NCBI GenBank assembly: GCA_016188475.1
Contig: JACPHT010000007.1
Location: 16,467 to 80,466, forward strand
From: Candidatus Uhrbacteria bacterium
GTDB lineage: Bacteria > Patescibacteriota > Patescibacteriia > UBA9934 > GWF2-40-263
Length of the DNA stretch: 64,000 nucleotides
Reading direction: 5' to 3'
The notes under the pieces are model-generated. The model worked only from the letters and a program-made list of their open reading frames with translations, ran no database searches and was not told the DNA's origin. A program made the translations under genes and the position numbers. This document shows positions 8,815 to 60,946 of the stretch, piece after piece (position 1 is the first letter of the stretch; each line of letters starts with the position of its first letter).

Positions 8815-8888
8815 TCCGGGGTCGTCTAGCGGCAGGACATGTGCCTCTGGAGCACAGAACCGTGGTTCGAGTCCACGCCCCGGAACCA
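8815..8888 (+). tRNA. tRNA-Gln, anticodon CUG.
   Basis: Manual cloverleaf fold. The acceptor stem is UCCGGGG/CCCCGGA. The D-stem is GUCU/AGGAC-type. The anticodon stem is UGUGC/GCACA with loop CU-CUG-GA. The T-arm is CGUGG-UUCGAGU-CCACG. Discriminator is A and a CCA is encoded. Confidence 0.85.
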
Positions 8889-8923: not shown

Positions 8924-8931
8924 GATGAAAA

Positions 8932-8959
8932 CACTTAACTACCGATCGGGAGTTAAGTG
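8932..8959. repeat. Palindrome family copy 1 (CACTTAACTACCGATCGGGAGTTAAGTG).
   Basis: 28-bp dyad related to the copies at 9060-9093 and 33801-33834. Confidence 0.7.
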
Positions 8960-9059
8960 AAAATGAATAAATTAAAATCTGTTTCTCCACAATTGATATA
9001 TTGAGATAAATTATAGATAAAAACTTTAAATTATACTGTTAATTTGAAAATACACAGAA

Positions 9060-9093
9060 TCACACTTAACTACCGATCGGTAGTTAAGTGTGA
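9060..9093. repeat. Palindrome family copy 2 (TCACACTTAACTACCGATCGGTAGTTAAGTGTGA), a perfect 34-bp palindrome.
   Basis: Direct reading. It lies 80 bp past the dnaX stop. Confidence 0.75.
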
Positions 9094-9171
9094 TTAAAAA
9101 AACACCACCTTTCAGCGGCGGAATAATTTCAATTAAAAAAACAAACTTTTAATAATCGGGAATTCTTATTC

Positions 9172-10743
9172 TTACGTCATCACTGTTCCGCCGAATTCGC
9201 TCACGAGCTTTTGCAAATTTTCTTCGTTTTCATGTTTTTTTTGAATCGCTTTTACTTTAATACGACGACCAATCACTTTTTCCAAAACATCCTCAATCAC
9301 CTGACGGTTTTTATCTTTGTTAACTGTTTGAACATACAAATCGTACGCAAAACCAAGTTCGACGTGCTCGCCTGTTACTCCGCAAACTTCGCACGACTGC
9401 ATGAACAGTGGTAAGGACGCATTACACTCTTTGATCTGTTCAAAAACTTGCGGCCATTTTGCGCGAACTTCATCAAGAGAAATGACTGGGATCGTATCAA
9501 AAACTGTTTCGTTTTCCCCTTCGACAAGCTCAGGGAGTAATGAATTTTCTTGCTCACCAATCTCGGTCCTTTCAGACCTTTCGGTCCTTTCCGACCTTTC
9601 CGACCTTTCGGTCCTTTCCGACCTTTCAGACCTTTCTTCATAAACCGAACCAACCCCCTGCTCCTTAAAATCCACTTGTCCTCCTTTGTCCTCCTTTGTC
9701 TCCTTTTGTCCTCCATTGTCACATATCTCAACAATAGCGAGCTCGATCGGCAACTGCGGCAAATGTTCGGAACGAATTTTTGTTTTCGCTTCAAGCAAGG
9801 AGGTGAGGGCTTGACGCGTAAACGAAATATCAGACTCTGGCAAAGCTTTTGAAAGTTGATCAAACAAACGATCACGCAAATTCGCGATCACATCTTCAAC
9901 AAACATTTTCAAATCAACTCCTTGTTCAATAAATGTATTCAAGTCAGAAATACAGCTTCCTGTATTTTTTTTAAAAAGATGACTAACAAAAGTTTCAACC
10001 AAAACCGTTGTTGTGGCAGGAAGAACAAGCGAAGCAAGTTCAACAGTGATGTGGTTTTCACCCAAAGCCATGAGTTGGCCAAGCAAACTCTCGGCGTCTC
10101 GCGCACAACCTGTGCTATGTCGAACTACTTGCTCAAGAACCTCATCATCAATTTTCATTTCCTCTGATTTTACAATTTCTCGCAACCGTTTCATCATTTC
10201 TTCCTTTTTAATTTTTCTAAAATCAAATCTTTGACATCGACTCACGATTGTTTCCGGAACTTTGTGAATTTCAGTTGTTGCTAAAATAAAAAGCACATGC
10301 TCTGGCGGCTCTTCAAGTGTTTTCAAAAGCGCATTGAATGCCGAAGTTGAAAGCATGTGAACTTCATCAATAATAAAAACTTTCTTTTTGAGTTGATTTG
10401 GAGCAAAACGAACGCTTTTGATTATATTTTCTCGAACATTCTCTACGTCTGTATTAGACGCAGCATCAATTTCGTAGATATCAAGCGAAGAACCTGAAGT
10501 GACTTGTTCACATGCGGAACACGTGTTGCATGGTTCGTTGTGTTTTGGTTTTTCACAATTAATAAGCTTTGCCAAAAGTCGCGCAGTTGTTGTTTTTCCA
10601 ACTCCACGCGGACCAGTAAACAAATAAGCATGGGCGATGCGGCCCATTTCAAATTGGTTTTGAATAGTTGTTGATACATGCGGCTGACCAATTAAATCAG
10701 AAAACTTTTGTGGTCTGTACGCACGGTATAAGGCTAAGGACAT
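9172..10743 (-). CDS. dnaX: DNA polymerase III subunit gamma/tau. It carries an in-frame ERSERSERTERSERSERTERSERTE low-complexity linker.
   Basis: GPRGVGKTT Walker A motif, Zn-module cysteines, DEVHMLS, and a clamp-loader fold pattern. Length is 523 aa. Confidence 0.85.
   Translation of the reverse strand: MSLALYRAYRPQKFSDLIGQPHVSTTIQNQFEMGRIAHAYLFTGPRGVGKTTTARLLAKLINCEKPKHNEPCNTCSACEQVTSGSSLDIYEIDAASNTDVENVRENIIKSVRFAPNQLKKKVFIIDEVHMLSTSAFNALLKTLEEPPEHVLFILATTEIHKVPETIVSRCQRFDFRKIKKEEMMKRLREIVKSEEMKIDDEVLEQVVRHSTGCARDAESLLGQLMALGENHITVELASLVLPATTTVLVETFVSHLFKKNTGSCISDLNTFIEQGVDLKMFVEDVIANLRDRLFDQLSKALPESDISFTRQALTSLLEAKTKIRSEHLPQLPIELAIVEICDNGGQKETKEDKGGQVDFKEQGVGSVYEERSERSERTERSERSERTERSERTEIGEQENSLLPELVEGENETVFDTIPVISLDEVRAKWPQVFEQIKECNASLPLFMQSCEVCGVTGEHVELGFAYDLYVQTVNKDKNRQVIEDVLEKVIGRRIKVKAIQKKHENEENLQKLVSEFGGTVMT
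9565..9636. repeat. Eight tandem 9-bp units GGTCCTTTC/CGACCTTTC (the reverse complement of GAAAGGWCN) inside the dnaX CDS.
   Basis: Direct reading. The period is 9 bp, so the reading frame is preserved. Confidence 0.8.
9678..9720. repeat. About 4 tandem units of the 10-bp repeat GTCCTCCTTT inside the dnaX CDS.
   Basis: Direct reading. The same repeat is present at 47186-47229. Confidence 0.75.
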
Positions 10744-11449: not shown

Positions 11450-11490
11450 CAAAATTTTATCCTTCGACAGGCTCAGGAAATAAAATTGTG
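11450..11490. repeat. Hairpin element with a conserved TTCGACAGGCTCA loop (stem CAAAATTTTAT / ATAAAATTGTG).
   Basis: Member of the dispersed family described in the findings. Confidence 0.7.
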
Positions 11491-14660: not shown

Positions 14661-17600
14661 TTAACTGCACCCACTCGTTGCGCCGCAGTTCAGACACTTA
14701 TAACACGCGGCGTTGCGGACCATGATTGAACCACAGGTGTCGCACGCTGGCGCGTCGGATTGGTTATCGAAAGTTTTTGTTGTGTCGAACAGCTTCGGCT
14801 GTTTTATTTCCTCCTCTTGCCTATTGCCTATTGCATCTTCTTCCTTTACTTCCTTTTCTTCAACTCCAACATTGATTCCAAGCGAGATTTGCGACTCTTG
14901 TGGGAGAAATTTGATCGCAAGCCAGCGGAAAATATAATCAGTAATAGATTTAGCAATTCGAATTTGCGGATTGTTTGTGTATCCAGACGGCTCAAAGCGC
15001 ATGTGCACAAACTTGTTCACCAAAACTTCAAGCGGAACTCCGTATTGCAAACCAATTGAAATCGCAGTTGCAAAACTATCCATAAGTCCACTTATGACCG
15101 AGCCTTCTTTTGACATTGTCATGAAAAGTTCTCCTGGCGAACCATCATCATACAATCCAACTGTGATATAACCCTCGTGACTTCCAACTTTAAACTTGTG
15201 CGTGATCGCGCGCCTTTCATCAGGCAAACGGCGACGACGCAATTTGTTGTCTGAACTAACAGTCACTGTTGGAACAGTCGTTTTTTCTTCTGGCATATTT
15301 TTGTCCTCCTCTTTCTCCACTCCATTCGCCGTCTGAAGCCGGCGACTACCTTCCTCTCCCTTATTCTGTTTCTTCGCATCGCTTTCTTTAGAAGTTGTAA
15401 GCGCTTGTTGACGTTTTGACCCGTCGCGATAAATCGCAATCGCTTTCAAACCAAGTTTCCAACCTGTTTCGTAAACCTCGATAATGTCTTCCGATGTCGC
15501 GTCGTGAGGCATATTCACTGTTTTTGAAATCGCTCCGGAAACAAACGGCTGAACAGCGGCCATCATTCGAACATGACCCATGTAATGAATTGTGCGAGTT
15601 CCGTTCGCGGCCTTAAAGGCACAGTCAAAAACCGGCAAATGTTCTTGTTTGAGGTGCGGAGCGTTTTCAATCGTGTCTGTTTTTTCAATATGCGCCAAAA
15701 TTTCTTCACGCTCTTTTTGCGAATATCCAAGCCTTGTCAAAGCTTCTGGAACTGTGTTGTTAACGATTTTCAACATTCCTCCGCCAACAAGCCATTTATA
15801 TTTCACGAGCGCAATATCCGGTTCAACTCCTGTTGTATCACAATCCATCAAAAATGAAATAGTACCTGTTGGCGCGATAACGCTGATCTGAGCGTTACGC
15901 AAACCGTGAAGACTTCCGTGTTCCACAACATTGTCCCAACTCATACGAGCTTCTGTAAGCAAATCAGCAGGAACTCCATTTGGATTGATTTCGTACGATG
16001 CGTCGCGATGCATTCTCATCACTTCCAAACACGGAGCTTCATTTTGTTTGTATCCTGCAAACGGCCCGATTTTTTCAGCGATCTTAGAGGACTGAAAATA
16101 GCAATGTCCGCTTTGAAGTGAAGTAATCGCGGCCGCAAAATTTCGTCCTTCGTCTGAATCATACGGAACTCCGCGACTCATTAAAAACGCGCCAAGATTC
16201 GCGTATCCGATTCCAAGCGGACGATAATCCAAACTGTTTTGTTCAATCGCCGGAGTTGGATAAACTGAATTTCCAATAATTATTTCCATCGCTGTCACAA
16301 CTATTTCGTTCGCTTTTTTGAAAGCATCAACATCAAACACCATCAAGCCGCCAACTTCCTTTCTAAACTTCATTATATTAAGCGACGCCAAATTGCACGC
16401 GCTGTCGTTTAGGAACATGTACTCTGAACAATTGTGGACGACGAGACCGTTGGCAACAAAATGATTCGTCCGTGGTTCTGTCAGATCGAAGACGTCTTCT
16501 GATCCAACAAAAGTGAGAGATTCAAATTTATCCGTCAACTCATCTTTATAGGTAGTAACGGTTTCGTTCATGAATGCAAGGTCGTTTGATTTGAAACTCC
16601 GATCCAAAAAACTAATTTCTTTTTCAAAAATCAATCGCGACGAACGACTCACGCGCAAAGAATGCATTTGTTGAACATGATATATTGCCCAGCCGCCTTT
16701 TCCATCTGGTAAACGAGATTGAAAAGATGTTCGACGATTTTCATAAATTTTCGCTTTAATCCCAAAGCCGAGCAAAAGAAGTTGAACTTGTCTCAAAAGT
16801 GTTAAGCTCACTGAATCAAGAGCGATATACTGTGATTTGTTTTCGTAATTTGCAACTGTCCCATCGGCTGTAAAAAGTCCACGGAGAATGGCGGCCTGTG
16901 AATTTTTTTCTAAACTAAAAACTTCGTCAGTGAATCTTTTTTCTTTTGACCCTTGATCTAATACAGCGTATTTTTTTAACGGTTCAAGTATACATCGGCT
17001 ACTTGTTCCAATTCGAACTCCAGTTTGAGTTGATACAACACTGCTCCATCTTGCGCCACGCCCATCTTCCGAAACGGATTGTTTGTAACCGTTCATCCTA
17101 AAATTAAACATCTCAAGCATGTCTGTTTCTTCTCTTCCACCAACAACCATTGCAAATTCTTGATGTGTTTTATAATTTGTTGAAAGACAACCGTCGCCAA
17201 TAGTAAGTCCAATCATTTCCGCAACAACTTCATCTTCACGCTTATTTCCAAAACCAGGCTGTTTCAATTCAAGAACATCACCAGGTTTTAATTCTTTTGC
17301 AAGCACGTCTCCGCGATTGCGTGTAAAAACTTTGTGATCTTCGGTTAGTCGAACCGAATACCCGCTTTTTGTTTGAAGTTCAAAAATCTTTTTGTGCCCT
17401 GTAGGAAAAATTTTATCAACTCGCGAAGACTGTCCGTCTGCCGCAATAATCTCAGCGGAACCTCCAACTAAATCACTTATTCGTTTATACCCTGATGTTG
17501 TTGAAACAAGCGTGTCACCTGTCACGCATGGATTTGACGCGTAAATTCGATCTGTGTTTTTGCATGTGTGCCATTTGTTGATTGTTGTGTCGTATTGAAT

Positions 17601-18962
17601 CCCTGGATCTCCACATTGCCAAGCGGCCTGCGCCATTTTATCCATTAGCTCTTTTGCTTTCCAAGTTTGAACTGGAGCGCCGGTCATAACAGCGTGCGTT
17701 GTCCAGTCTTCATCTTTTTCAACAGATTGCATAAACGCGTCTGTCACGCGCACAGAGTTGTTTGCGTTTTGAAAATAAACAGAAGAGTATGCTGATCCAT
17801 CCATTGAACCATCATAACCAGCGTCCATTAACACCCAAGCTTTTTTTTCTTCCTCAACTTTGCATTGAATAAAATCGTTGATGTCTGGATGATCAATATC
17901 CAAGATCACCATTTTTGCGGCGCGACGAGTTTTTCCACCGCTTTTGATCACACCCGCAAAAGCGTCAAGACCCTTCATAAAAGAAACCGGACCTGATGCT
18001 TTTCCATTGCTTCCGCCTAGAAATTCTTGTTTTGATCGTAATTTTGAAAGATTTGTTCCTGTTCCGGATCCGCCTTTGAAAAGCATTCCTTCTGTCACAC
18101 ACAAATTCAAAATAGAGCGCATGTCATCTTCAACTGAATTTATAAAACACGCGCTGCATTGTTGAGGTCGAGAAGTTCCAACATTAAACCAAACTGGCGA
18201 ATTAAACGCCGCCATTTGGTTTACCAAAATATAGTGAAGTTCATCCTCAAAAGCTTGAGCGTCTTCCTGAGTTGCGAAATATCCATCTTTGCGACCCCAA
18301 TTTGAAATTGTTTTTGCAACACGAGAAACAAGTTGCTTGACTGAATATTCTCTGTCATCTTTTCCAATTGTTCCGTAAAAATATTTTGATACAACAATGT
18401 TTGTCGCTGTTTGCGTCCAACTTTTTGGAACTTCTACTCCTTTTTGTTCAAAAACCACTTCGCCTTTTGTTCCACTGATAACCGCGTCGCGTGTTTCCCA
18501 TTCGATTTCATCAAATGGATGAACCTCTGGTTTTGTGAAACGACGCTCAACTGTTATTCCATGACCATAAACCTCGCCACGTTCGTCTGTTTGCACGACC
18601 GCTCTGTAATTTAGATATTTTTTCGCTACATGGATTAGGTTGTTATCGATTAGTGTCACGTTCACAACCTCGCGAACATCGGCAAATGATGGAACACTGT
18701 GCCCATTGAATCTGTGTGTCAGTCGCGTCACTACTTGGCCAGCGATTTTTTCAGCAAGCTTTCCGGATTTGATTCCTGACGCTTCAAGCGCTTGCTTGAT
18801 TGAATGCGCAAGTTTGTGCGGTTCAAACATTTGCTCTGAACCATCGCGTTTGTGAAGCGTTTTTACAGAAGTCATGAACTGCCAAACCGCTTCAGAAATA
18901 TTTTCCGTTCCAGTCGTTGTTTGATTAGTTTGTGAAACGATTTTGTCGGATTGTGACGGCAT
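14661..18962 (-). CDS. nrdJ: Class II (B12-dependent) ribonucleotide reductase NrdJ. It has an N-terminal ATP-cone, a C-terminal Zn-ribbon, and a 366-aa intein.
   Basis: ATP-cone region (VWQFMTSVKTLHKRDGSEQMFEPHKL). RNR core motifs (FNSPVWFNVG, CSACFI, GGSGTG). The intein is inserted in NPC|SEY. The C-terminal CDTCGS..CYKCLNCG is a Zn ribbon. Confidence 0.85.
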   Translation of the reverse strand: MPSQSDKIVSQTNQTTTGTENISEAVWQFMTSVKTLHKRDGSEQMFEPHKLAHSIKQALEASGIKSGKLAEKIAGQVVTRLTHRFNGHSVPSFADVREVVNVTLIDNNLIHVAKKYLNYRAVVQTDERGEVYGHGITVERRFTKPEVHPFDEIEWETRDAVISGTKGEVVFEQKGVEVPKSWTQTATNIVVSKYFYGTIGKDDREYSVKQLVSRVAKTISNWGRKDGYFATQEDAQAFEDELHYILVNQMAAFNSPVWFNVGTSRPQQCSACFINSVEDDMRSILNLCVTEGMLFKGGSGTGTNLSKLRSKQEFLGGSNGKASGPVSFMKGLDAFAGVIKSGGKTRRAAKMVILDIDHPDINDFIQCKVEEEKKAWVLMDAGYDGSMDGSAYSSVYFQNANNSVRVTDAFMQSVEKDEDWTTHAVMTGAPVQTWKAKELMDKMAQAAWQCGDPGIQYDTTINKWHTCKNTDRIYASNPCVTGDTLVSTTSGYKRISDLVGGSAEIIAADGQSSRVDKIFPTGHKKIFELQTKSGYSVRLTEDHKVFTRNRGDVLAKELKPGDVLELKQPGFGNKREDEVVAEMIGLTIGDGCLSTNYKTHQEFAMVVGGREETDMLEMFNFRMNGYKQSVSEDGRGARWSSVVSTQTGVRIGTSSRCILEPLKKYAVLDQGSKEKRFTDEVFSLEKNSQAAILRGLFTADGTVANYENKSQYIALDSVSLTLLRQVQLLLLGFGIKAKIYENRRTSFQSRLPDGKGGWAIYHVQQMHSLRVSRSSRLIFEKEISFLDRSFKSNDLAFMNETVTTYKDELTDKFESLTFVGSEDVFDLTEPRTNHFVANGLVVHNCSEYMFLNDSACNLASLNIMKFRKEVGGLMVFDVDAFKKANEIVVTAMEIIIGNSVYPTPAIEQNSLDYRPLGIGYANLGAFLMSRGVPYDSDEGRNFAAAITSLQSGHCYFQSSKIAEKIGPFAGYKQNEAPCLEVMRMHRDASYEINPNGVPADLLTEARMSWDNVVEHGSLHGLRNAQISVIAPTGTISFLMDCDTTGVEPDIALVKYKWLVGGGMLKIVNNTVPEALTRLGYSQKEREEILAHIEKTDTIENAPHLKQEHLPVFDCAFKAANGTRTIHYMGHVRMMAAVQPFVSGAISKTVNMPHDATSEDIIEVYETGWKLGLKAIAIYRDGSKRQQALTTSKESDAKKQNKGEEGSRRLQTANGVEKEEDKNMPEEKTTVPTVTVSSDNKLRRRRLPDERRAITHKFKVGSHEGYITVGLYDDGSPGELFMTMSKEGSVISGLMDSFATAISIGLQYGVPLEVLVNKFVHMRFEPSGYTNNPQIRIAKSITDYIFRWLAIKFLPQESQISLGINVGVEEKEVKEEDAIGNRQEEEIKQPKLFDTTKTFDNQSDAPACDTCGSIMVRNAACYKCLNCGATSGCS
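16431..17528 (-). mobile_element. Intein (aa 479-844 of NrdJ) carrying a LAGLIDADG homing-endonuclease domain.
   Basis: Begins CVTGDTLV and ends VVHN, followed by Cys+1. Two LAGLIDADG-like blocks are present (MIGLTIGDGCL and ILRGLFTADGTV). The insertion is in the conserved NPC-SEY active-site loop. Confidence 0.8.
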
Positions 18963-19172
18963 AGGTAGAGAAGAAAGTTAGGAAGAAGTGAAAAGCAAGT
19001 GAAAAAGTGATTGAGTGATGGAGTGATAAATGCAGTCAAAAAACAATCCCAACTGGGATCATTCTATTTCTCCTGGGAGGTTCACACAATATCTTGTGGT
19101 ACAACTATATTTTATACCCCAACATATTGTGCGTCAAAGTTCCACTTATCCACAGCAAAACTCTTAAAACGT

Positions 19173-19266
19173 GTCATTGCGAGGAGGCCACTAGGCCGAC
19201 GAAGCAATCTCTGTATTTTCTCTAAAATTGCAGATTGCTTCGCTCACTACTGTCGCTCGCAATGAC
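19173..19266. repeat. Nested-stem element, copy 1 (GTCATTGCGAG..CGAAGCAATCTCT..GATTGCTTCG..CTCGCAATGAC).
   Basis: Related to the copies at 46041-46116 and 59963-60046. Confidence 0.75.
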
Positions 19267-19273
19267 GAATTTT

Positions 19274-19852
19274 TCAAAACCCCATCGTTAAGTTAATCTT
19301 TGGCGCTAATTCCACTTTTTTCTCAAAATTTACAGGAATTGCTCGTCGACCGTGCAAACGATCTTCATACGCAAGCGCTTTATACTTAAGCCCGTATTCG
19401 TAAACCGCTTTTGTGACTTTTACGTCTTGCAAACAATAATCCTTAATTTTCTGAATCTCCCCTTGCTTCCACCATTCAACCGCCTGAAGACCATGACCCG
19501 ATTTGCGCACACCAACTGTCGCGGCCGCAACATCATCAAGTTTTAGTCGAAATCCAAGAACATTGTGAATTTCCTCAAGAATATCAAGACTTGAAAAAGT
19601 AAGAAAATCTCCGCTGTAATAATTATTCATGACTGGATAATCAAAACTTTTTGTGTTGTATCCGATAATTCTGTCAGCCTGTTCCAATTGTTTCCAAAGC
19701 ATAGGTAGTTCTGGTTCTTCAAACGCTTCGTACGTGTCGGTTTCATAAAAATAACAACCAATAACACTGATGAGCAGTTTGTCATGGTTATATCCGCCAA
19801 CATCTTCAAATGTGTTTTGTGTTTCAATATCGAGAACGATTTCTTTGGACAT
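19274..19852 (-). CDS. DEDD-family 3'-5' exonuclease domain protein (DnaQ/RNase D-like).
   Basis: Exo I LDIETQN, Exo II YNTKSFDYPVM and Exo III YCLQDVKVT motifs. Length is 192 aa. Confidence 0.6.
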   Translation of the reverse strand: MSKEIVLDIETQNTFEDVGGYNHDKLLISVIGCYFYETDTYEAFEEPELPMLWKQLEQADRIIGYNTKSFDYPVMNNYYSGDFLTFSSLDILEEIHNVLGFRLKLDDVAAATVGVRKSGHGLQAVEWWKQGEIQKIKDYCLQDVKVTKAVYEYGLKYKALAYEDRLHGRRAIPVNFEKKVELAPKINLTMGF

Positions 19853-19854
19853 AA

Positions 19855-19916
19855 AAGAAAGGTCTGAAAGGTCGGAGAGGACAGAAAGGTCTGAAAGGAG
19901 GGAAAGGTCTGAAAAG
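19855..19916. repeat. Seven tandem 9-bp units AAAGGTCTG in an intergenic spacer.
   Basis: Same family as the dnaX-internal repeat. Confidence 0.75.
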
Positions 19917-26698: not shown

Positions 26699-27820
26699 TC
26701 AGGATGGCAGTATTATTTCGATTTTTAAAATCAGATCTCTCAAACCTGTACCTTTTTTAGCTGAAATACAAATGGCCTTTCGATCACCCAAACGACTAAT
26801 GATGTCATTTTTCGTTGAAGAAGAGACCAAGTCAGTTTTATTGAGCACTAAAATTCGTGGTTTTTGATCCACTTCAAGTCGTTTCAAAATATCATCAACA
26901 CATCCAAGTTGTTGAAAAAAATGTTTATCGCTCGCGTCAGCGATATGCAAAAGCAAATCAGCGTCAACTGCTTCAGAAAGTGTTGAAGCAAAAGCGCTTA
27001 AAAGTTCTGGCGGAAGTTGTTTTATAAAACCGATCGTGTCAGAAACAAGCGCTACTTCTGCTTGTTTTGGTAAAAAAAGTTGACCGACACGTGTGTCAAG
27101 TGTTGCAAAAAGTTCATTGGCCGCGTATTCACGCCTACCAGTGAGAGCATTCAAGAGCGTTGTTTTTCCAGCATTTGTATATCCGACAATAGCGACTGTT
27201 TTAAGATTATTTCGTTTCCGTGACGCTCTCTGTAAATCACGACCTTTTTGATATGTTTCTAACTTATCTTTGATGCGACGTTCTTTTTCTTTCAAGTGTC
27301 TCTTCATGCGCTCAATGTTTGTTTCTCCAATTCCAATAGTTCCGATTCCTCCAGCTTGTCGTGATAACTCCATTCCCATTCCAAAAATCCGCGGACCCAT
27401 GTGACGAATGCTCGCGAGTTCGATTTCCAAACGCGCTTCTGTTGTTTTCGCATGTTTGGCAAAAATTTTCAAAATCAAATCGATTCGATCCCAAACTTGA
27501 ATTTTGTATTTTCGTAATTGTTCTGAAAGTTCAAAAGTTTGACGTGGTTTAAGTTGCGCGTTGATAATCAAAAATGATGCTCCAAGTTTTTTCCCTTCTT
27601 CACCGAGCTCAAGCACTTTTCCGATTCCAATATATGTTTTTGGATGCGGCGCAAATCGTTTCTGCCATTTTTTAACAATCACAATTCCCCCGTACGTATG
27701 TACAAGCTCTTCAAGTTCTTCCATCCGATCCATAGCATGCTCTCCAAGCATTTTCGGATGAATGAGATCAATTAGAATCGCTTTTTGTTGAGACACATTA
27801 ACTAAGCCGTGTTGTACCAT
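26699..27820 (-). CDS. hflX: GTPase HflX.
   Basis: HflX N-domain (PHPKTYIGIGK). G1 is GYTNAGKTTL, and G3/G4 motifs are present. Length is 373 aa. Confidence 0.85.
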   Translation of the reverse strand: MVQHGLVNVSQQKAILIDLIHPKMLGEHAMDRMEELEELVHTYGGIVIVKKWQKRFAPHPKTYIGIGKVLELGEEGKKLGASFLIINAQLKPRQTFELSEQLRKYKIQVWDRIDLILKIFAKHAKTTEARLEIELASIRHMGPRIFGMGMELSRQAGGIGTIGIGETNIERMKRHLKEKERRIKDKLETYQKGRDLQRASRKRNNLKTVAIVGYTNAGKTTLLNALTGRREYAANELFATLDTRVGQLFLPKQAEVALVSDTIGFIKQLPPELLSAFASTLSEAVDADLLLHIADASDKHFFQQLGCVDDILKRLEVDQKPRILVLNKTDLVSSSTKNDIISRLGDRKAICISAKKGTGLRDLILKIEIILPS

Positions 27821-27901
27821 GTCTCCTGGTCATCGGACTGTCGCCGCTGTTCCCTACGACATGTTAAAACCCGGCCCAATCAGAATCATTTCAATCATAC
27901 C

Positions 27902-31720: not shown

Positions 31721-31811
31721 GAGCGGTCGTACAATGTCTCCGGGCCAACGCCGTGCCTGCCTTTGGCAGGGACTCTTCGCCGCTGTCCCCTACGTCATGG
31801 TACAACCGCTC
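31721..31811. repeat. GC-rich inverted-repeat element. Arms are GAGCGGTCGTACAATG / CATGGTACAACCGCTC. The core is ATGTCTCCGGGCCAACG..GACTCTTCGCCGCTGTCCCCTACGTCATGG with a 20-nt hairpin insertion.
   Basis: Member of the family described in the findings. Confidence 0.7.
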
Positions 31812-31865
31812 ATTTATTATCTCTCAACTTCCTATTTGGTGGAAAGGGATGGAGGACGATATTCA

Positions 31866-33800: not shown

Positions 33801-33834
33801 TCACACTTAACTCCCGATCGGGAGTTAAGTGTGA
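33801..33834. repeat. Palindrome family copy 3 (TCACACTTAACTCCCGATCGGGAGTTAAGTGTGA), flanked by T-runs on both strands.
   Basis: Perfect 34-bp palindrome with the same arms as 9060-9093. Confidence 0.75.
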
Positions 33835-33952
33835 TAATATTTTTTGAAAACTAGGGAAATGTTCTATATCTTTCTGTTGACATCTTTTCGCGGGTGTGAA
33901 AAAATGTCAACAAGTCAACAGACGATAAATTAAAAATTTCAAAATAAATCTT

Positions 33953-43684: not shown

Positions 43685-44879
43685 TTGCTATTCTCTCCAA
43701 CTCATCAACGTATTTTTTCAGTGAAAAGCGCTCTGCGCTTTTTTGAATTTCTTTTGTTTTATTCCAAAAAAAATCCCGCTGTTTTTCAAACTTTTTAAAA
43801 GCGTCGGTAAGTGAATCAACACTCCCGGGTTCTACCAGCAAAGCGTTTTCTCCGTCTATAACCAACTCTGGAATCCCGCCAATTTTCGACGCGATGACAG
43901 CTGTTCCAACTTGAAAACTTTCGTAAATAACAGTTGGAGAATTTTCATAACACAACGACGGCAAAACAACACAATCACAATTTCTCATTAATTTTCTGAT
44001 GTGTTCCAATGATATAAATCCGTGGAAAAGAATCCTCGAATCAAGATTAGCTTTTTTCACAACACCTTGAACAGACGCCCCATCTCCAGCAATGTGAAGT
44101 TCAAATGGAAACGAAAGATTGTTTACGGCTTCGAGTAAAACTTTTATTCCTTTATGATCTTCTATCTGACCGACAAACAAAAATTTTATTGGACCATTTG
44201 GCGAAACTGTTTCGCGTTCTTCACGACTAACGTATTTCGGGGTCGGATTTGGAATCACTCGAATTTCTGAATTTGAAAAAAAATTCCGCGCCTTATAAAA
44301 CTCTGCAAGAAAATTCGACGGCGATATCACAACATCTGGCGAACCAATCGCGTGCTTTGTCGCTTTCTCATACAATCGACGGACAAAACCAACTTGTTCT
44401 TTATTGTCTTTATGATCACAAATTAAAATTCCACTTGGAATTGATAATTGAACATCGTGAATTGTGTGAATGTGATGTATCCCCATTTTTTGAACTTGCA
44501 AAGAAGCGCTCATTCCTAAACCTTTTAAGTTGTGCGTAAAAACGACATCGGGTTCTTCTTCTTTGAGCACTCGCTTCAATACAGACTTTGGAAACGGTCC
44601 AAATAAATCTATTACATGCCAAATTAAACGCAAAAAAAATGGAAACTTAGACGCGCTAAAAAGATGATATAAATTCAGTGGAAAAAATCTGTAAACTCGT
44701 TCCACATAATGTTCTGTAACTTTAGGAAACAAACTTTTTATTCCACCAAATGGCATTGTAGTAATTATAAAAACATCATGTCCACGCGAAAAAAATTCAT
44801 CAGCGACTCGTTGAGCAACAAGTTCGGCTCCGCCTCGTTCTGACGGTGGATATAAATTTGAGATTATTCCAATTTTCAT
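43668..44879 (-). CDS. Glycosyltransferase family 4 (GT-B).
   Basis: E(N)SPTVIYESFQVGTAVIASKIGGIPE, the GT4 C-terminal signature. Confidence 0.75.
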   Translation of the reverse strand: MKIGIISNLYPPSERGGAELVAQRVADEFFSRGHDVFIITTMPFGGIKSLFPKVTEHYVERVYRFFPLNLYHLFSASKFPFFLRLIWHVIDLFGPFPKSVLKRVLKEEEPDVVFTHNLKGLGMSASLQVQKMGIHHIHTIHDVQLSIPSGILICDHKDNKEQVGFVRRLYEKATKHAIGSPDVVISPSNFLAEFYKARNFFSNSEIRVIPNPTPKYVSREERETVSPNGPIKFLFVGQIEDHKGIKVLLEAVNNLSFPFELHIAGDGASVQGVVKKANLDSRILFHGFISLEHIRKLMRNCDCVVLPSLCYENSPTVIYESFQVGTAVIASKIGGIPELVIDGENALLVEPGSVDSLTDAFKKFEKQRDFFWNKTKEIQKSAERFSLKKYVDELERIAIKIHT

Positions 44880-46045
44880 ATATATTCTCGCGTGCTCTTC
44901 TGTTCTAAAACAGATCTGTACGTTTTCTCAAGATTTGATATAGCGGGCTCCCAATCAAAATTAGATTCAGCATTCAATCTTGCGGCTTGGCCAAAACGTT
45001 TTCTTACTTCTGGTTGAGAGAGAAACAACGTTATCGCATTTGCAAGTTCCGTTATATCTTCAGGAGGAACAAGAAGACCTGTGCTTCCGTCCAAAACAAC
45101 AGTGCGAACTCCGGGCAGGTTTGACGCGATGGTTGGAATTCCACTTGCGGCCGCTTCAAGCGCTACAAGACCAAATGCTTCAGCACGTTTCAGAGACGGA
45201 AAAACATGAAAATCCGATAACTGATAGATAAATGGAATATCACGCTCAGCAACATTCCCAAGAAAATGAACCCTGCCATTCAAAATCGATTTTCTAACAA
45301 CTGTTTCAAAACTTGACCGTAAATTTCCATCCCCAACAATAAGCATTTCCCAAGGTTGAGGAGTGATAAGTTTAAGCGCTTCAAGAAGAATAGGGGCACC
45401 CTTAAAATAATGCGCGCTGTCAAGACCTCCAACAAATAATATAACAGGAACATCTGTTCGAATATCCAACCGCCGTTTAAAAAATTCCGCATTGCCTGGT
45501 CGGAATCTGTGAAGATCAATTCCGAAAGGATGTATTTCAACTCGATCCATTGCGCCTTGAATTTCGGAAATAGCTGATCCATTAATATAATCCTTACTGC
45601 TTGCCAGTATCCGATCAGTACGATTCACAAGCCAAGGCAATAAAATTCTTTTATGAGCGTTAAACAAAGTGCCCCGAACACCGTTTCCTGTTGCGTCCAT
45701 GTGATAAGTCATGACAAGCCCTTGATTTGGAGAAATTGCTTTTCGAACTATTGTCGGCTCTGCACCTCCAAAAAAAGGATAATGCAAATGAACCAAATCA
45801 AAGCCTGACAAACGTCGAAAAAGCGATGGCATTACACCGGCATTTCCGATATGCACTATACTTGGAACACGATGCACATAATCTGGATCGTCAACTTCAA
45901 CATGACCTTTTGTTGTAAACACATGAACGTCATACCCGCGCTCTCGCAATCGTTCTGTGTATTCAAAAGCAACATTTCCCATTCCTCCGCGATATGGAGG
46001 ATAGGTGCAAACGACTTGTGCAATTTTTGGTTTTATTTCGGTCAT
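44876..46045 (-). CDS. Glycosyltransferase family 4 (GT-B).
   Basis: YPPYRGGMG N-terminus and EAFGLVALEAAASGIPTIAS motif. The start is reassigned to MTEIKPK at 46045. The ORF-track N-terminal extension translates a repeat element. Confidence 0.75.
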   Translation of the reverse strand: MTEIKPKIAQVVCTYPPYRGGMGNVAFEYTERLRERGYDVHVFTTKGHVEVDDPDYVHRVPSIVHIGNAGVMPSLFRRLSGFDLVHLHYPFFGGAEPTIVRKAISPNQGLVMTYHMDATGNGVRGTLFNAHKRILLPWLVNRTDRILASSKDYINGSAISEIQGAMDRVEIHPFGIDLHRFRPGNAEFFKRRLDIRTDVPVILFVGGLDSAHYFKGAPILLEALKLITPQPWEMLIVGDGNLRSSFETVVRKSILNGRVHFLGNVAERDIPFIYQLSDFHVFPSLKRAEAFGLVALEAAASGIPTIASNLPGVRTVVLDGSTGLLVPPEDITELANAITLFLSQPEVRKRFGQAARLNAESNFDWEPAISNLEKTYRSVLEQKSTREYI

Positions 46046-46116
46046 TGCGAGAAGGCCATAGGCAGACGAAGCAATCTCTAGGATTGCTTCGGTCGCTACC
46101 GTTCCCTCGCAATGAC
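46041..46116. repeat. Nested-stem element, copy 2. Its 5' arm contains the ATG of the downstream GT4 gene.
   Basis: GTCATTGCGAG..CGAAGCAATCTCT..GATTGCTTCG..CTCGCAATGAC. Confidence 0.75.
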
Positions 46117-46124
46117 AAAAATCT

Positions 46125-47180
46125 CTAATAAACGAAATATCTAAGTATCTTCCACACAAAACACAATATAGGATTTCCAATCAATGTGACAATAGGATTG
46201 TTTGTTTCCTGATGTATTATTTTACAAGTGAATAATCGGACTATTTCTGCATCGCTAACTTTCCGAATCGAACGTGACTCGCGACGTTTTCGCAAAACGT
46301 ATGTCCATGATTTAGGACTCAACAAACTTGCATACACATAAATCTTTTGTTTAATCCAACCTCCTTTAATTGCAAACAAAAGAAGAGGGATTTCCATTAT
46401 TACCATGAACGGTAAAAGAATCAATAGTGTTGACCAATTCAGATGTGAAAAATGGACAAGCCAACGATTTCGTTCCATCCAAAAAAATTTCTGTATTGAT
46501 CGTTTGAATTCGTAATCATGAAATGAGCGAGATCGTAAAGATAAAACATTTTTATATCCAGCAAGACGAATTCTCCAACCAAGTTCTAAATCCTCGTGAT
46601 ACAAAAACAAAAACGGATCAAGAACACCAATTTTTTTTAGAACTTCAGCTCGATACAATACTGCCGCGCCACTTGCATACGCAATTTCTTCCCCATCACT
46701 CCGACACTCCGTTACTTCATCACTTTTCTCTCCATTATCCCTCACAAATCCGAATCCCAAAAAATGAACCATACCTCCTGTTGAATTAACAATGGCCGGA
46801 TGTTTCCAAAGCAACATGAGCGATTGCACTGATCCTATTTTTGAATCCGACTCTGCCAATGTTACAGCCTCTTTGATCGCGTCGGGATGCAATTTCAAAT
46901 CATTGTTGTGTAAAAAAACATAATCAGCGCCGTGGAGCAAAGCATGATTGATGCCTATATTATTACCTTCTGCAAACCCTAAATTTTTTCCATTTGGAAA
47001 AAACGTGATGTCACTTACGTTTAGCAGATATTCCTGACTGCCATCTGTTGATGCATTGTCAACAAAAATAAATTCCAAACTTTCACGAGGATAATTAAGC
47101 GCGCGTAGTGCGTTTAACACTTCGTCCAAATATCGTTTCCCGTTGTAAGAAAGATAAACAATCGCGACTTTTGGCATCAT
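46125..47180 (-). CDS. Glycosyltransferase family 2.
   Basis: AIVYLSYNG...FVDNASTDGS, a DXD-type GT-A N-domain. Length is 351 aa. Confidence 0.75.
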   Translation of the reverse strand: MMPKVAIVYLSYNGKRYLDEVLNALRALNYPRESLEFIFVDNASTDGSQEYLLNVSDITFFPNGKNLGFAEGNNIGINHALLHGADYVFLHNNDLKLHPDAIKEAVTLAESDSKIGSVQSLMLLWKHPAIVNSTGGMVHFLGFGFVRDNGEKSDEVTECRSDGEEIAYASGAAVLYRAEVLKKIGVLDPFLFLYHEDLELGWRIRLAGYKNVLSLRSRSFHDYEFKRSIQKFFWMERNRWLVHFSHLNWSTLLILLPFMVIMEIPLLLFAIKGGWIKQKIYVYASLLSPKSWTYVLRKRRESRSIRKVSDAEIVRLFTCKIIHQETNNPIVTLIGNPILCFVWKILRYFVY

Positions 47181-47539
47181 AAATTGTCCTCCTTTGTCCT
47201 CATTTGTCCTCCTTTGTCTTCTTCTTCCACTGCCAACTTTCTCACCAGCTTCGTTATCTCACGCTCAACATCTTCAATTTTTCCAAAAAGCCGAAATATC
47301 AAATAGAATAAAGCGATGAGCGAAATATAAATTACAAAATCCGCGCCGCGTCCTACTCCGACAAGTTTCGCAATAACATCAGTTGTTTGAGGTGATATCG
47401 CAACACCACCAACCACAATCCAAAATACAATCCAAAAAATAAGCCACGCGATCGAAAGTGCTCCTTGTCGAAACTGACGAAGCGTCCGCGAGATCGCGAA
47501 CAAAGCAAATAGAAGAATGAAGATTTGGATGAGGGACAT
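47177..47539 (-). CDS. DUF2304-like small membrane protein. Its C-terminal tail (EEEDKGGQ..) is encoded by the 10-bp repeat.
   Basis: Two TM helices. The context after a GT2 gene is typical for this family. Confidence 0.5.
   Translation of the reverse strand: MSLIQIFILLFALFAISRTLRQFRQGALSIAWLIFWIVFWIVVGGVAISPQTTDVIAKLVGVGRGADFVIYISLIALFYLIFRLFGKIEDVEREITKLVRKLAVEEEDKGGQMRTKEDNL
47186..47229. repeat. About 4 units of the 10-bp repeat GTCCTCCTTT. Same repeat as in dnaX.
   Basis: Direct reading. Confidence 0.75.
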
Positions 47540-47542
47540 AGG

Positions 47543-47577
47543 GAAAAATCTGAAAGGACCGAAAGGTCGGAAATGTC
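47543..47577. repeat. About 4 units of the 9-bp repeat GAAAGGWCN.
   Basis: Direct reading. Intergenic. Confidence 0.7.
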
Positions 47578-47588
47578 AAAAAAAACAA

Positions 47589-48254
47589 TTACTGTCGGAT
47601 GCGGCGCAAGACTAGTTTAACCAACGTTTTCAAACCAACTGTAAAACTTTGCCCTTTTGAAAGCGAGTAATCAGTGTAGATTGCCTTAATCGGAACTTCT
47701 GCCAAAGTGAGTTTACGACGTCTTGCTTCAGCAATCAATTCAGATGAAACTTCCATGCGATTTGTCTGAATTTCAATCTGTCGTATAGCGTACGCTGTGA
47801 ACGCACGAAAACCGGATTGACTGTCTGTTACCAGTGCTCCAAATAAAAAAAACGTAACAATGTTTCCAAGCACGTTTGCCGCTTGACGATACCACGGCAT
47901 ATCTGTGCGTTTGAGCATTCGCGAGCCGATAACAACGTCCGCTCCTTTTTCAATCGCTTGAATGAACAATGGAATTTCTGATGGATCATGCTGACCGTCA
48001 GCGTCAAGAGTGACAACAATATCTGCTCCAAGTCGTTTTGCCATTTCAAAACCAGTTCCGATTGAAGCGCCAAGTCCGCGATTGATCACATGGCTTACAA
48101 CTATCGCGTTGTGTGCTCGTGCGATTTCCGCAGTTCTGTCACTTGATCCGTCATCTACAACAATAATTTGATCAACAAATGGCCGAGTGTTCGTAAGAAC
48201 CTCGGCAATAGTTTTTTCTTCGTTGAAAGCTGGAATGATGGCGATTGTTCTCAT
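47589..48254 (-). CDS. Glycosyltransferase family 2 (dolichol-phosphate mannosyltransferase-like).
   Basis: IIPAFNEEKTI...VVDDGSSDRT...LDADGQHDP. Confidence 0.75.
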   Translation of the reverse strand: MRTIAIIPAFNEEKTIAEVLTNTRPFVDQIIVVDDGSSDRTAEIARAHNAIVVSHVINRGLGASIGTGFEMAKRLGADIVVTLDADGQHDPSEIPLFIQAIEKGADVVIGSRMLKRTDMPWYRQAANVLGNIVTFFLFGALVTDSQSGFRAFTAYAIRQIEIQTNRMEVSSELIAEARRRKLTLAEVPIKAIYTDYSLSKGQSFTVGLKTLVKLVLRRIRQ

Positions 48255-48308: not shown

Positions 48309-48384
48309 GGGAGTGGCTTGCGCCATGTTGTAGGGAACAGCGGCGACAGTCCGCTGGCCCGGAGACATGGTGCAAGTCACTCCC
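48309..48384. repeat. GC-rich inverted-repeat element in reverse orientation. Arms are GGGAGTGGCTTGCGCCATG / CATGGTGCAAGTCACTCCC.
   Basis: The core is GGAACAGCGGCGACAGTCCG, the reverse complement of the family core. Confidence 0.7.
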
Positions 48385-49444: not shown

Positions 49445-49574
49445 CCATTGTTTGTTGTAGTAGAGACAGACGGGCCGACTTTTTCTTGGCCTTGTACTAA
49501 TATTGAGCAGTTGCACCATGTCTCCGTGCCAACGGACTCTTCGCCGTTGTTCACTCCGACATGGCGCAACCGCT
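49445..49574. repeat. Composite element made of a GTAGAGACAGACGGG..CTTTTTCTTGGCCTT module (also at 4083-4173) joined head-to-head to a GC-rich inverted-repeat element (arms GAGCAGTTGCACCATG / CATGGCGCAACCGCTC).
   Basis: Direct reading. Confidence 0.65.
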
Positions 49575-49651
49575 CATTTCAATCTTTTTTTTAGGCGCTA
49601 TGCAAGCGGGGTCAAGAGATCCAGCCCATGTCTTTTGTTAACCTAAAATTG

Positions 49652-51258: not shown

Positions 51259-51492
51259 CCTTGAGCTTGTCGAAGAGACAAAATTTGGTTAAATCATCTA
51301 CAGCCTTCGACAGGCTCAGGCAATAACTATTCATAACGCATTACCACCTTCGACAGGCTCAGGCAATAACTATTCATAACGCATTACCACCTTCGACAGG
51401 CTCAGGCAATAACTATTCATAACGCATTACCACCTTCGACAGGCTCAGGCAATAACTATTCATAACGCATTACGGCTCAGGCAATAATTTGC
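51259..51492. repeat. Tandem array of about 4.5 units of a 43-bp repeat CCTTCGACAGGCTCAGGCAATAACTATTCATAACGCATTACCA. A degenerate reverse-orientation copy precedes it.
   Basis: Direct reading. Units begin at 51304, 51347, 51390 and 51433. Confidence 0.85.
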
Positions 51493-53613: not shown

Positions 53614-53688
53614 AAAGAGCGGTAGCACTATGTCTCCAGGCCATCGGACTGTCGCCGCTGTTCCTTTCGACATAGTGCTACCGCTCTT
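53614..53688. repeat. GC-rich inverted-repeat element. It has perfect 19-bp arms AAAGAGCGGTAGCACTATG / CATAGTGCTACCGCTCTTT, and the core is TCTCCAGGCCATCGGACTGTCGCCGCTGTTCCTTTCGA.
   Basis: Direct reading. Confidence 0.8.
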
Positions 53689-53750
53689 TGCTGTTATTTC
53701 GGTTTACCGGCAACCAATGTTAGTCCCCTTTGGAATTGGTACGACACTTG

Positions 53751-59771: not shown

Positions 59772-59962
59772 AATAAATTGAACTGTTTCTCAGATTTGGG
59801 CTCTGAGGGGCCGTTAGGATTTAATTACGCAACGTAGCCTCTCGGCTTCGACCTTTCAACGCGCGCGAATTAATAAGATTACGCTATTCGAACGAGCTTT
59901 TACGCGCGTTCAAACAGTGAGCCAGGGTTCTTTCGCTGTGGAAAGAAACCCGACTCAAGTGT

Positions 59963-60046
59963 GTCATTGCGAGACGATCGAATGATCGTCGAAGCAATCT
60001 CTGTACTTGGATTGCTTCGTCGGCCGTACAGCCTCCTCGCAATGAC
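59963..60046. repeat. Nested-stem element, copy 3.
   Basis: GTCATTGCGAG-ACGATCGAATGATCGT-CGAAGCAATCTCT..GATTGCTTCG..CCTCGCAATGAC. Confidence 0.75.
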
Positions 60047-60061
60047 ACGATAGTCTATTGC

Positions 60062-60946
60062 TCACTCCACTACTACCTCCTTCAACAACTGAAACGCTCG
60101 ACGATACGCGCCTTCTTTCTTCAATAAAATTGCTGTTTCAATTTTCTGTTTTTGTTCAAGCGTCAAATCTTTTGCTTCCAACGTCGCGACTTCTTGTTCA
60201 AATGTTTTTTCAAGTTCGCGCGCGACTGCTTCGTCTTCAGTTGCTTCATGAGCTGTGATAATCACTTCAACAGCTTCGTCTTGTGTGTCTTTTAGAATTT
60301 GTTGAACAACATCTGTTTCCTGTTTAACATCATCCGGTAAATTTACGCTCGAGTCCGCAACTGTTTCTTGATACGCTTTTGTTTTTCGTCCAACTTCTTT
60401 TGCAAGTTCTGTTTGTGATGAAGTCGCGTTTTCTTGTTTCAAATCTGACTGAATGTTTTCCACTTCTTTCTTAAACTGTTGCATTGCAAGTCGAACCGCT
60501 GAAGCATTGTCTTTATATTCTGTTGCTGTAAGAGCCACCATTTCTTCCAAACGTCTTGATGTGAATTCGACTTGCAATTTTGCTTTTTGCGAAGGACTAA
60601 ACGCTGTTGCTAATTGGATTTTTTCAAGAGAAAGTTTCACGTTGTACATTTTTTCGCCAGGAAGCGCGTTAAACGAAGAGCTGTTCGCGCTTGCAAATCC
60701 GCCAAGCAACAGCAAAAACACAGCCATGCTAATTGCAAGCGGTTTTACAATTGTGCGGCTGAACTGAAACACATAAAATTCAAGATAATCACGGAAGCCG
60801 TAATCAACTTTTTCATTTTCGTTGCTTTTTGGAAAATCATTTTCTTCAGCAAAACGATTCCACAATTTCTGTGTATCAAATCCTGCTCCCATTTCTGGTG
60901 CATCTTTTATTGACTCGAGTAATTTTTCAAAATCCCGCTCGTTCAT
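60062..60946 (-). CDS. Putative membrane-anchored anti-sigma factor (DUF5667-like).
   Basis: Immediately downstream of an ECF sigma gene and overlapping it. Single TM followed by a coiled extracytoplasmic region. Confidence 0.45.
   Translation of the reverse strand: MNERDFEKLLESIKDAPEMGAGFDTQKLWNRFAEENDFPKSNENEKVDYGFRDYLEFYVFQFSRTIVKPLAISMAVFLLLLGGFASANSSSFNALPGEKMYNVKLSLEKIQLATAFSPSQKAKLQVEFTSRRLEEMVALTATEYKDNASAVRLAMQQFKKEVENIQSDLKQENATSSQTELAKEVGRKTKAYQETVADSSVNLPDDVKQETDVVQQILKDTQDEAVEVIITAHEATEDEAVARELEKTFEQEVATLEAKDLTLEQKQKIETAILLKKEGAYRRAFQLLKEVVVE

Follow-up and report, generated by a model that had tools for sequence, protein, structure and literature searches.

Paired directional repeats in a Candidatus Uhrbacteria contig probably belong to the CGTC-tagged REP superfamily

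Three elements in spacers between minus-strand genes

A 64-kb stretch of the Candidatus Uhrbacteria contig JACPHT010000007.1 (assembly GCA_016188475.1), which we call the window, contains three small structured elements that are 94, 76, and 84 nt long. Copy 1 lies between an RNase H-like gene and nrdJ, copy 2 between a GT2 and a GT4 gene, and copy 3 between a DUF5667 gene and a gene encoding 1244 amino acids. In every case the spacer separates two co-directional minus-strand genes, as the initial annotation of this DNA had stated, and the element is located shortly after the stop codon of the upstream gene (Table 1). Coordinates are window positions throughout; relatives and other loci, each 8-20 kb long, are given as L numbers where they have to be told apart.

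The annotation had also described an 11-bp outer and a 10-bp inner inverted repeat shared by the three copies, and both are perfect in each copy. A search of the whole window for GTCATTGCGAG and its complement yielded six exact matches that form three inverted pairs (19173/19256, 46041/46106, and 59963/60036). When up to one mismatch was allowed there were seven matches compared with 1.49 expected, a number reached in 0 of 100 shuffles. Exact matches to CGAAGCAATC and its complement are likewise paired (19200/19233, 46067/46082, and 59990/60010). The full elements (76-94 nt) are predicted to fold with energies of -37.7 to -42.6 kcal/mol (z = -6.0 to -7.6), and both strands fold equally well.

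Every element is built from two copies, in inverted orientation, of a single directional unit, GTCATTGCGAG-(module)-CGAAGCAATC. We searched the window, with filters off, using a covariance model of this unit that was trained solely on copies from other organisms. The model found six units forming three dimers (E = 4e-9 to 3e-6) and the next match had E = 0.93; therefore, there are exactly three copies in the 64 kb. The tags at the ends of these six matches are CGTC in one unit, TGTC in four, and GGTC in one. Most probably the three elements are HH (head-to-head, tags outside) dimers of a palindromic unit of the REP (repetitive extragenic palindromic) type that belongs to the CGTC-tagged REP superfamily, which makes them a non-autonomous, dispersed, evolutionarily mobile DNA repeat.

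Table 1. Positions of the three elements, their units, and adjoining features in the window
Feature	Position	Strand	Description	Model match or context
Copy 1	19173..19266		HH dimer of two inverted REP-type units, 23-nt spacer	8 nt after stop of RNase H-like gene (19274-19852, minus); ahead of the nrdJ DnaA box and promoter-like site
Copy 1 unit A	19171..19211	+	Tag TGTC; P1 ATTGC/GCAAT; GA/GAA loop; module hairpin GA-GGCC-ACTA-GGCC-GA; tail CTC	46.4 bits, E = 4e-9
Copy 1 unit B	19231..19268	-	Tag CGTC; poorly paired module CGACAGTAGTGAG; tail CTG	34.3 bits, E = 3e-6
Copy 2	46041..46116		HH dimer, 5-nt spacer	9 nt after stop of GT2 gene (46125-47180, minus)
Copy 2 unit A	46039..46078	+	Tag GGTC; module AAGGCCATAGGCAGA	35.8 bits
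Copy 2 unit B	46080..46118	-	Tag TGTC; module GGAACGGTAGCGAC	36.8 bits
ATG in copy 2 arm	46043..46045	-	Likely GT4 start codon (MTEIKPKIAQVVCTYPPYRGG...)	
Copy 3	59963..60046		HH dimer, 10-nt spacer	15 nt after stop of DUF5667 gene (60062-60946, minus)
Copy 3 unit A	59961..60001	+	Tag TGTC; fully paired module ACGATC-GAAT-GATCGT	42.0 bits; DNA fold -9.9 kcal/mol
Copy 3 unit B	60008..60048	-	Tag TGTC; module GA-GGCT-GTAC-GGCC-GA; tail CCA	44.9 bits
Gene downstream of copy 3	start 59771		1244-aa gene	Copy 3 sits 191 nt upstream

The unit, its distribution, and its place among CGTC-tagged REPs

The unit consists of an unpaired Y-GTC tag, a body with the format ATTGC-GA-G(variable hairpin)C-GAA-GCAAT, and a C-C/T-A tail. 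Within the body a 5-bp stem, ATTGC/GCAAT, is followed by an asymmetric purine loop in which GA lies opposite GAA, then by a closing G-C pair and the variable module. Among 121 complete elements collected outside the window, the commonest modules are CGAAG, CGCAG, CGTAG, and CGGAG. Together with its closing pair the minimal module CGNAG reads GCGNAGC, an extra-stable DNA mini-hairpin of the GNA kind that standard DNA parameters are known not to capture (PMC13037366). The commonest form of the unit has nine stem positions on each side, seven of them Watson-Crick (5 + 2) and two G.A, with a bulged A and a 3-nt GNA loop. Many copies carry a module of 11-45 nt, and the longer modules are arranged as GA-stem-loop-stem-GA or as stem-loop-stem; those in the window are of these kinds. 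Sequence information in the flanks ends at position -1 (C or T) on the 5' side and at +1 and +2 (C and A; 0.96 and 0.54 bits) on the 3' side. Because the flanks are uninformative beyond these positions, the elements are not fragments of a longer mobile element, a possibility that the initial annotation had named; their boundaries are sharp.

The longer modules pair far more often than shuffled sequence. Among 159 distinct modules of at least 9 nt, two or more nested Watson-Crick pairs occur in 53 of the 68 modules of the GA..GA type (4.9 expected from shuffling) and in 47 of the 91 others (6.9 expected). In an alignment of 89 distinct units, 106 cells of the module helix are changed on both sides compared with 44 in shuffles; none of 500 shuffles reached 106, and slid controls gave far lower values. 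The annotation had interpreted the internal hairpins as showing compensatory change and selection on structure. The hairpins that it cited, GGCC-ACTA-GGCC in copy 1 and ACGATC-GAAT-GATCGT in copy 3, are present, and across the family pairing is kept while the sequence varies freely. In the window, however, the hairpins that differ are exchangeable hypervariable modules rather than point substitutions at homologous positions. Selection on pairing is real family-wide, but such selection is usual in REP-type repeats and gives no means of telling RNA from single-stranded DNA. Each element carries two variable modules, one per inverted unit. The GGCC-type module is in the left arm of copies 1 and 2 and in the right arm of copy 3, where the unit B module is of the same subtype as that of copy 1 unit A. 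The relative orientation of copy 3 is ambiguous, with the arms pointing to inversion and the loop to the same orientation, so modules seem to have been exchanged between arms.

Di Nocera, De Gregorio and Rocco (2013, BMC Genomics 14:522; PMC3733652) introduced the CGTC-tagged REPs as units with an unpaired CGTC tag (frequently TGTC, with CCTC as another variant), complementary A-T at stem positions 1-2, and a 3-base tail close to CCA. Their stems are 8-9 bp long with loops of 4-5 nt, aberrant loops being noted in some families, and their dimers are mostly HH, with TT (tail-to-tail) rare and HT (head-to-tail) negligible (PMC3733652). The same authors found them between unidirectional or convergent ORFs (open reading frames), within about 20 bp of the upstream ORF, with some intragenic copies and no associated transposase; the CGTC-1 family includes Neisseria dRS3 and Rickettsia RPE-6, and CGTC-4 includes RPE-4 (PMC3733652). 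Tags in 493 units from our collected loci are CGTC (297), TGTC (169), GGTC (13), and AGTC (8), and the leading tails are CCA (252), CTC (112), and CCC (52). Dimers in these loci comprise 156 HH, 4 TT, and 11 HT, and HH is also the arrangement of every window copy. Pairing of ATTGC with GCAAT is seen in 98% of cells, a figure for which the window copies alone are independent evidence, this pattern having been used to collect the loci.

The present elements resemble CGTC REPs in being mostly HH dimers, in lying between genes near the 3' end of the upstream ORF, in occasionally overlapping ORFs, in their patchy occurrence among strains, and in having no transposase. Placed side by side, CGTC-1 reads YGTC ATTCCCGC GAAG GCGGGAAT CCA and the present unit YGTC ATTGCGAG CGAAG CGAAGCAAT CCA; the two have in common the tag, the ATT start, the AAT end, the tail, and a central G-N-A loop. 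They differ in that the stem of the present unit has another sequence and is imperfect (G.A/A.G and a bulged A), and its centre is a hypervariable self-folding module. Canonical CGTC-1-like and CGTC-3-like units, whose sequences were inferred by back-translating the peptides in the supplement to PMC3733652, occur in the same loci and in the same frame (YGTC, AT...AT, CCA). Peptides encoded by CGTC-1 to CGTC-4 include VIPAKAGI, SFPRKRES, VIPGLDPGI, VIPWLDHGI, and RHSELVSGS, and those encoded by the present unit are VIASEAKQS and RHCERSEAI. The latter two were not found in the supplements to PMC3733652 and match none of the listed CGTC-1 to CGTC-4 peptides. A search of the published text for the DNA boxes and the repeat-derived peptides returned primers or nothing.

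A related family, YGTCATCC-TGAG-G(hairpin)CT-CGAA-GGATGA, occurs in four alphaproteobacterial loci (L113, L161, L188, and L238) and has the same tag and a GAG...CGAA core. It suggests that the superfamily is wider than the four published CGTC families.

We collected loci with two scans for the unit pattern, one of genome contigs and one of IMG/VR contigs, and both counts are lower bounds. At least 120 genome contigs, drawn from many phyla, and at least 120 phage-like contigs of IMG/VR contain the unit. The genome contigs listed include many from Bradyrhizobium and Sphingomonadales (Sphingomonas), others from Pedobacter, Sphingobacterium, Bacteroidales, Chloroflexota, Patescibacteria, and Ignavibacteriota, and further ones from Zixibacteria, Planctomycetales, Spirochaetaceae, Coxiellaceae, Solimonas, Candidatus Tisiphia, Binatia, and Syntrophomonadaceae. 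A megaplasmid of Novosphingobium resinovorum carries the unit at 40 or more places, and it is also found on plasmids of Methylobacterium, Methylosinus, Legionella, and cyanobacteria and in Helicobacter canis prophages; these plasmid and prophage occurrences are unannotated in almost every case. This range covers a dozen phylum-level groups, Patescibacteria among them, with many phage-like and gene transfer agent (GTA) contigs, whereas CGTC REPs had been reported from five phyla. Identical stretches of at least 26 nt are found in unrelated phyla, and the frequency of the unit in phage-like contigs suggests a vehicle for its spread between phyla. The 511 units in the collected loci include 165 inverted pairs, 181 singles, and a few tandem arrays. 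In one IMG/VR contig (L120, 2323-10270) the unit lies inside a composite tandem repeat of about 75 nt with all copies in one orientation, and L104 (36-640) contains arrays of units with a 38-nt inserted module and short unique spacers between them.

Elements avoid divergent spacers, which contain promoters: 134 are in co-directional, 39 in convergent, and 20 in divergent spacers. In 52 of the 134 co-directional cases the element lies within 20 nt of the upstream stop codon. Single units between co-directional genes are sense in 29 cases and antisense in 30. We found no recurrent neighbour: 145 Pfam families were assigned among 142 ORFs flanking elements in the genome loci, none more than twice, and no transposase was listed. 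All-against-all clustering of 2732 ORFs near elements yielded no linked gene other than syntenic phage structural genes, and the elements in phage contigs neighbour capsid, portal, terminase, and GTA genes. The window ORFs tested likewise included no transposase. In the phage-like contig L003 (4355-4388), by comparison with L036, L110, L083, and L001, one unit has been inserted between the Shine-Dalgarno sequence of a conserved gene and its ATG; the two are spread about 50 nt apart and could be reunited only through the hairpin.

Relatives of the window within Candidatus Uhrbacteria differ in which sites are filled. The junction between the RNase H-like gene and nrdJ is syntenic in four of them (L249-L252). 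Copy 1 has an orthologue in L250 (GCA_016208545.1; 92% protein identity), which differs by substitutions found chiefly in the spacer and one of the modules, but copy 1 is absent from the closer relative L249 (sample 3300038439; 97%) and from the more distant L251 and L252. Copy 2, at the GT2-GT4 junction, is present in L255 (GCA_016208545.1; 81%) and absent from L253 (sample 3300038439; 89%) and L254. Thus the positions, the conservation of which the annotation had proposed to check in related genomes, are not conserved: copies 1 and 2 are kept in one relative and missing from a closer one. L250 and L255 together contain 11 units, which besides the orthologues of copies 1 and 2 make up three dimers and one single unit, some of them at spacers that lack the unit in the window. 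The five loci L249 and L251-L254 (75 kb) contain no units. Filled and empty sites are also seen among related phage-like contigs. Comparison of filled with empty sites gave no clear target-site duplication; a weak likeness of GTTTTGA and GTTTTAA around copy 1 was not accepted as one, there being nothing comparable around copy 2. The element is gained and lost on short time scales, which argues against a conserved strand-specific regulatory RNA. We interpret it as a dispersed repeat that is gained and lost because orthologous sites are patchily filled, single units are oriented evenly, no neighbour gene recurs, and no transposase was found. The annotation's suggestion of a small mobile structured repeat is borne out by this presence and absence in relatives together with the dispersal across phyla, the sharp boundaries, and the CGTC REP format.

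As to how such a repeat might spread, the purine-rich strand has G.A mismatches and a minimal GNA loop, whereas its complement would have pyrimidine mismatches. The purine-rich strand would accordingly be expected to fold as single-stranded DNA. Counting G.T versus A.C mismatches in module stems, as a test of strand, gave 2 versus 1, too few to decide. The folded strand may be copied or inserted by a trans-acting enzyme that is not encoded next to the element, and the instability of palindromes may contribute to loss. The enzyme that mobilises CGTC REPs was left unnamed in PMC3733652, and the way in which they multiply with no transposase of their own has been a question since 2013. The present family has recently been gained and lost among closely related Candidatus Uhrbacteria, whose genomes are so small that setting carriers against non-carriers could identify the enzyme. 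The interest of the elements lies in this question and in the breadth of their distribution, and not in a new regulatory principle.

Several points weigh against assigning the elements to a mobile CGTC-tagged family. All loci were gathered using the conserved boxes, which makes conservation of the boxes uninformative. The published description calls for a perfect stem of 8-9 bp and a loop of 4-5 nt; the present unit has five Watson-Crick pairs with G.A mismatches and a module of 5-45 nt. From its sequence the unit looks like a further family of the superfamily, set apart from the others by peptide lists and not by published consensus sequences. With nearest-neighbour DNA parameters, single units are no more stable than shuffles (z = +0.3 to -2.8), so it is covariation that supports the unit fold. 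The statistics on orientation and distance used crude longest-ORF gene calls, and the single units come mostly from phage-like contigs. Gain and loss could also be explained by recombination or deletion of palindromes rather than by transposition.

Other explanations for the elements

A more specific version of the assignment, which we put forward tentatively and regard as rather unlikely, is that the elements form a previously unclassified and unusually cosmopolitan CGTC REP family with a strand-specific single-stranded DNA fold made of a 5-bp foot, tandem G.A pairs, and either a GNA mini-hairpin or a free hairpin module, spreading without a transposase that is encoded by or linked to the element. 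Spread could then occur through a conserved replication, priming, or repair activity, for example, or through a phage-borne enzyme, and families with a similar core (CCTGAG...CGAAGG in the window and GTCATCCTGAGG...CGAAGGATG in Alphaproteobacteria) would spread in that way as well. If this were true, tiny Uhrbacteria genomes that differ in carriage of the repeat would give a short list of candidate mobilising genes.

It is quite unlikely that the elements are REPINs in the strict sense, that is, REP doublets mobilised by a RAYT (REP-associated tyrosine transposase) or another Y1 enzyme of the IS200/IS605 type that recognises a folded single strand. The architecture of two inverted units and a short spacer, forming one long hairpin, is that of REPINs (Bertels and Rainey 2011), as set out in PMC3116915 and PMC3337134. 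Both kinds of element occur as singlets as well as doublets and behave non-autonomously, and the strand-specific, purine-rich fold of the unit and its gain and loss with no evident target duplication would fit such an enzyme. Against this, the tag is CGTC or TGTC and not GTAG, and neither a flanking RAYT gene nor any other Y1/HUH gene was found beside a copy among the ORFs tested in the roughly 2 Mb of collected loci and in the window. The boxes are shared among phyla, in contrast to RAYT-REP pairs, which are lineage-specific. Di Nocera et al. likewise reported no RAYT or IS200 gene flanked by CGTC units (PMC3733652).

We consider it very unlikely that the elements are, first of all, dedicated cis-acting RNAs that act as regulatory or processing signals in polycistronic mRNAs and were selected at these three junctions, a version of the first of the two readings that the initial annotation had offered. 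The strong folds of the elements, the pairing kept in modules of differing sequence, the placement of all window copies on the transcribed side 8-15 nt past a stop codon, and the overlap of copy 2 with the GT4 ATG, in a frame kept in its orthologue, would all be expected of such an RNA. However, there was no Rfam match at the gathering score, and permissive scans gave only chance matches to miRNA-like hairpins. The fold is equal on both strands, the orientation of single units is unbiased, and closer relatives have the same junctions with no element. The sequence also adjoins unrelated genes in many phyla and phages, and downstream of copy 1 nrdJ possesses a conserved DnaA box and a promoter-like site of its own.

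That the host evolved terminators or mRNA-stabilising hairpins in place is most improbable. The elements have very stable stems close behind stop codons, and on the minus strand copy 1 is followed by a short run of U, but a consensus scan called no terminator at any copy, the same spacers lack the elements in close relatives, and the identical stretches in unrelated phyla cannot arise in place. REP/BIME sequences of E. coli also follow stop codons in operons and, when transcribed, can stabilise the upstream mRNA or attenuate transcription (cited in PMC3733652). Their sequences are unrelated to those of the present family.

Classical miniature inverted-repeat transposable elements (MITEs), mobilised by the DDE transposase of a parent insertion sequence, are extremely improbable in spite of the perfect 11-nt terminal inverted repeats, small size, and intergenic position of the elements, since 181 of the 511 units are single and directional with no inverted partner, inverted termini occur in dimers only, filled and empty sites show no target-site duplication, and the collected loci contain neither a longer element with the same ends nor a neighbouring transposase. 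The Correia elements of Neisseria and ERIC sequences are similar to the present elements in being small intergenic repeats. They have terminal inverted repeats, target-site duplications, and known or inferred DDE transposases, and they are co-transcribed with neighbouring genes and form RNA hairpins that alter the fate of the mRNA. The basic entity of the present family, by contrast, is a single directional unit with no duplication.

Some other structures were considered and rejected. Read directly from the sequence, GA-G...C-GAA is reminiscent of the hammerhead ribozyme core on its stem-II side, but the CUGANGA box is absent (the sequence reads AUUGCGA). Loop sizes do not fit K-turn or sarcin-ricin motifs. 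Integron attC sites are similar to the unit in their single-strand fold, conserved boxes at the foot, unpaired bubble, variable terminal structure, and position right after ORFs. The R''/R' boxes of attC (RYYYAAC...GTTRRRY) are nonetheless not matched by GTCATTGC...GCAATC, which has no GTT/AAC core, and arrays of promoterless cassettes and a nearby integrase are likewise lacking.

Effects on resident genes and other repeats in the window

On our preferred reading, that of a dispersed CGTC-type REP dimer, an element that lands in an operon would give the upstream cistron a 3'-terminal stem-loop of about -40 kcal/mol in its transcript, where it could block 3' exonucleases and attenuate read-through. 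The window elements are probably co-transcribed with their upstream genes. Because copy 1 precedes both the DnaA box and the promoter-like site of nrdJ, it is assigned to the 3' end of the transcript from upstream. Any influence on mRNA ends or on the GT4 start codon would be a by-product, which selection may tolerate or occasionally exploit.

The distal arm of copy 2, CTCGCAATGAC in the minus-strand reading, holds the first in-frame ATG of the GT4 gene, and a transcript folded in this way would bury that start codon. This ATG is the only canonical in-frame start near the conserved GT4 N-terminus (MTEIKPKIAQVV...). In GCA_016208545.1 the orthologue of copy 2 has this ATG in the same frame and the gene caller takes it as the start, which makes the annotation's proposal that copy 2 supplies the GT4 start plausible. 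ORF 44876..46180 runs through copy 2, and both this ORF, already suspected of carrying a false N-terminal extension, and the 427-aa calls in Logan assemblies are probably extended falsely, the in-frame ATG lying within the arm of the element. For annotation, such repeats create false ORF extensions and can donate start codons, and their covarying hairpin modules mean that they can be mistaken for conserved regulatory RNAs.

Downstream of copy 1, a perfect DnaA-box consensus, TTATCCACA, is located at 19146-19154 (plus strand) and is invariant in five Uhrbacteria relatives. It is followed on the minus strand, upstream of nrdJ, by a promoter-like sequence, TTGACG-17-TAAAAT (19137..19109). Together these sequences suggest that the ribonucleotide reductase may be under DnaA control. 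The gene itself (14661-18962, minus strand) encodes a class II ribonucleotide reductase with a LAGLIDADG intein, as in L250 and L252; the orthologue in L249 (1053 aa) has no intein.

The window contains a second intergenic repeat family with the core CCTGAGCCTGTCGAAGG (14 matches compared with 0.09 expected), with sites at 9518, 11461, 26616, 27912, 51260, 54232, 55714, 55840, 55978, and 61648 and an array of four 43-nt tandem copies at 51299-51470. The core usually lies inside an AT-rich stem that varies between copies. This family and the CGTC-type family have in common a core of GAG-N5-CGAAG between complementary flanks. At 11461 and 26616 the window has a second-family copy where GCA_016208545.1 has a CGTC-type dimer.

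A third repeat forms hairpins of about 70 nt (27811-27879, 31726-31815, 48320-48375, 49510-49579, and 53622-53690) at gene starts or in spacers. It has a conserved core (GTAGGGAACAGCGGCGACAGTCCG.TGGCC.GGAGAC) within long outer stems whose sequence differs between copies while complementarity is kept, the predicted folds are -49 to -56 kcal/mol (z about -9), and no Rfam family matched it. Short tandem arrays lie directly upstream of minus-strand gene starts. Those at 19857-19914, 47543-47591, and 9563-9636, and at 9666-9723 and 47174-47231, consist of 9-nt units, GAAAGGTCN, or of 10-nt units that read AGGAGGACAA on the minus strand and resemble repeated Shine-Dalgarno motifs. Finally, the palindrome ACACTTAACT.CCGATCGG.AGTTAAGTG occurs in three copies (8931-8971, 9062-9102, and 33803-33843), two of which are located just downstream of a tRNA at 8815-8885.

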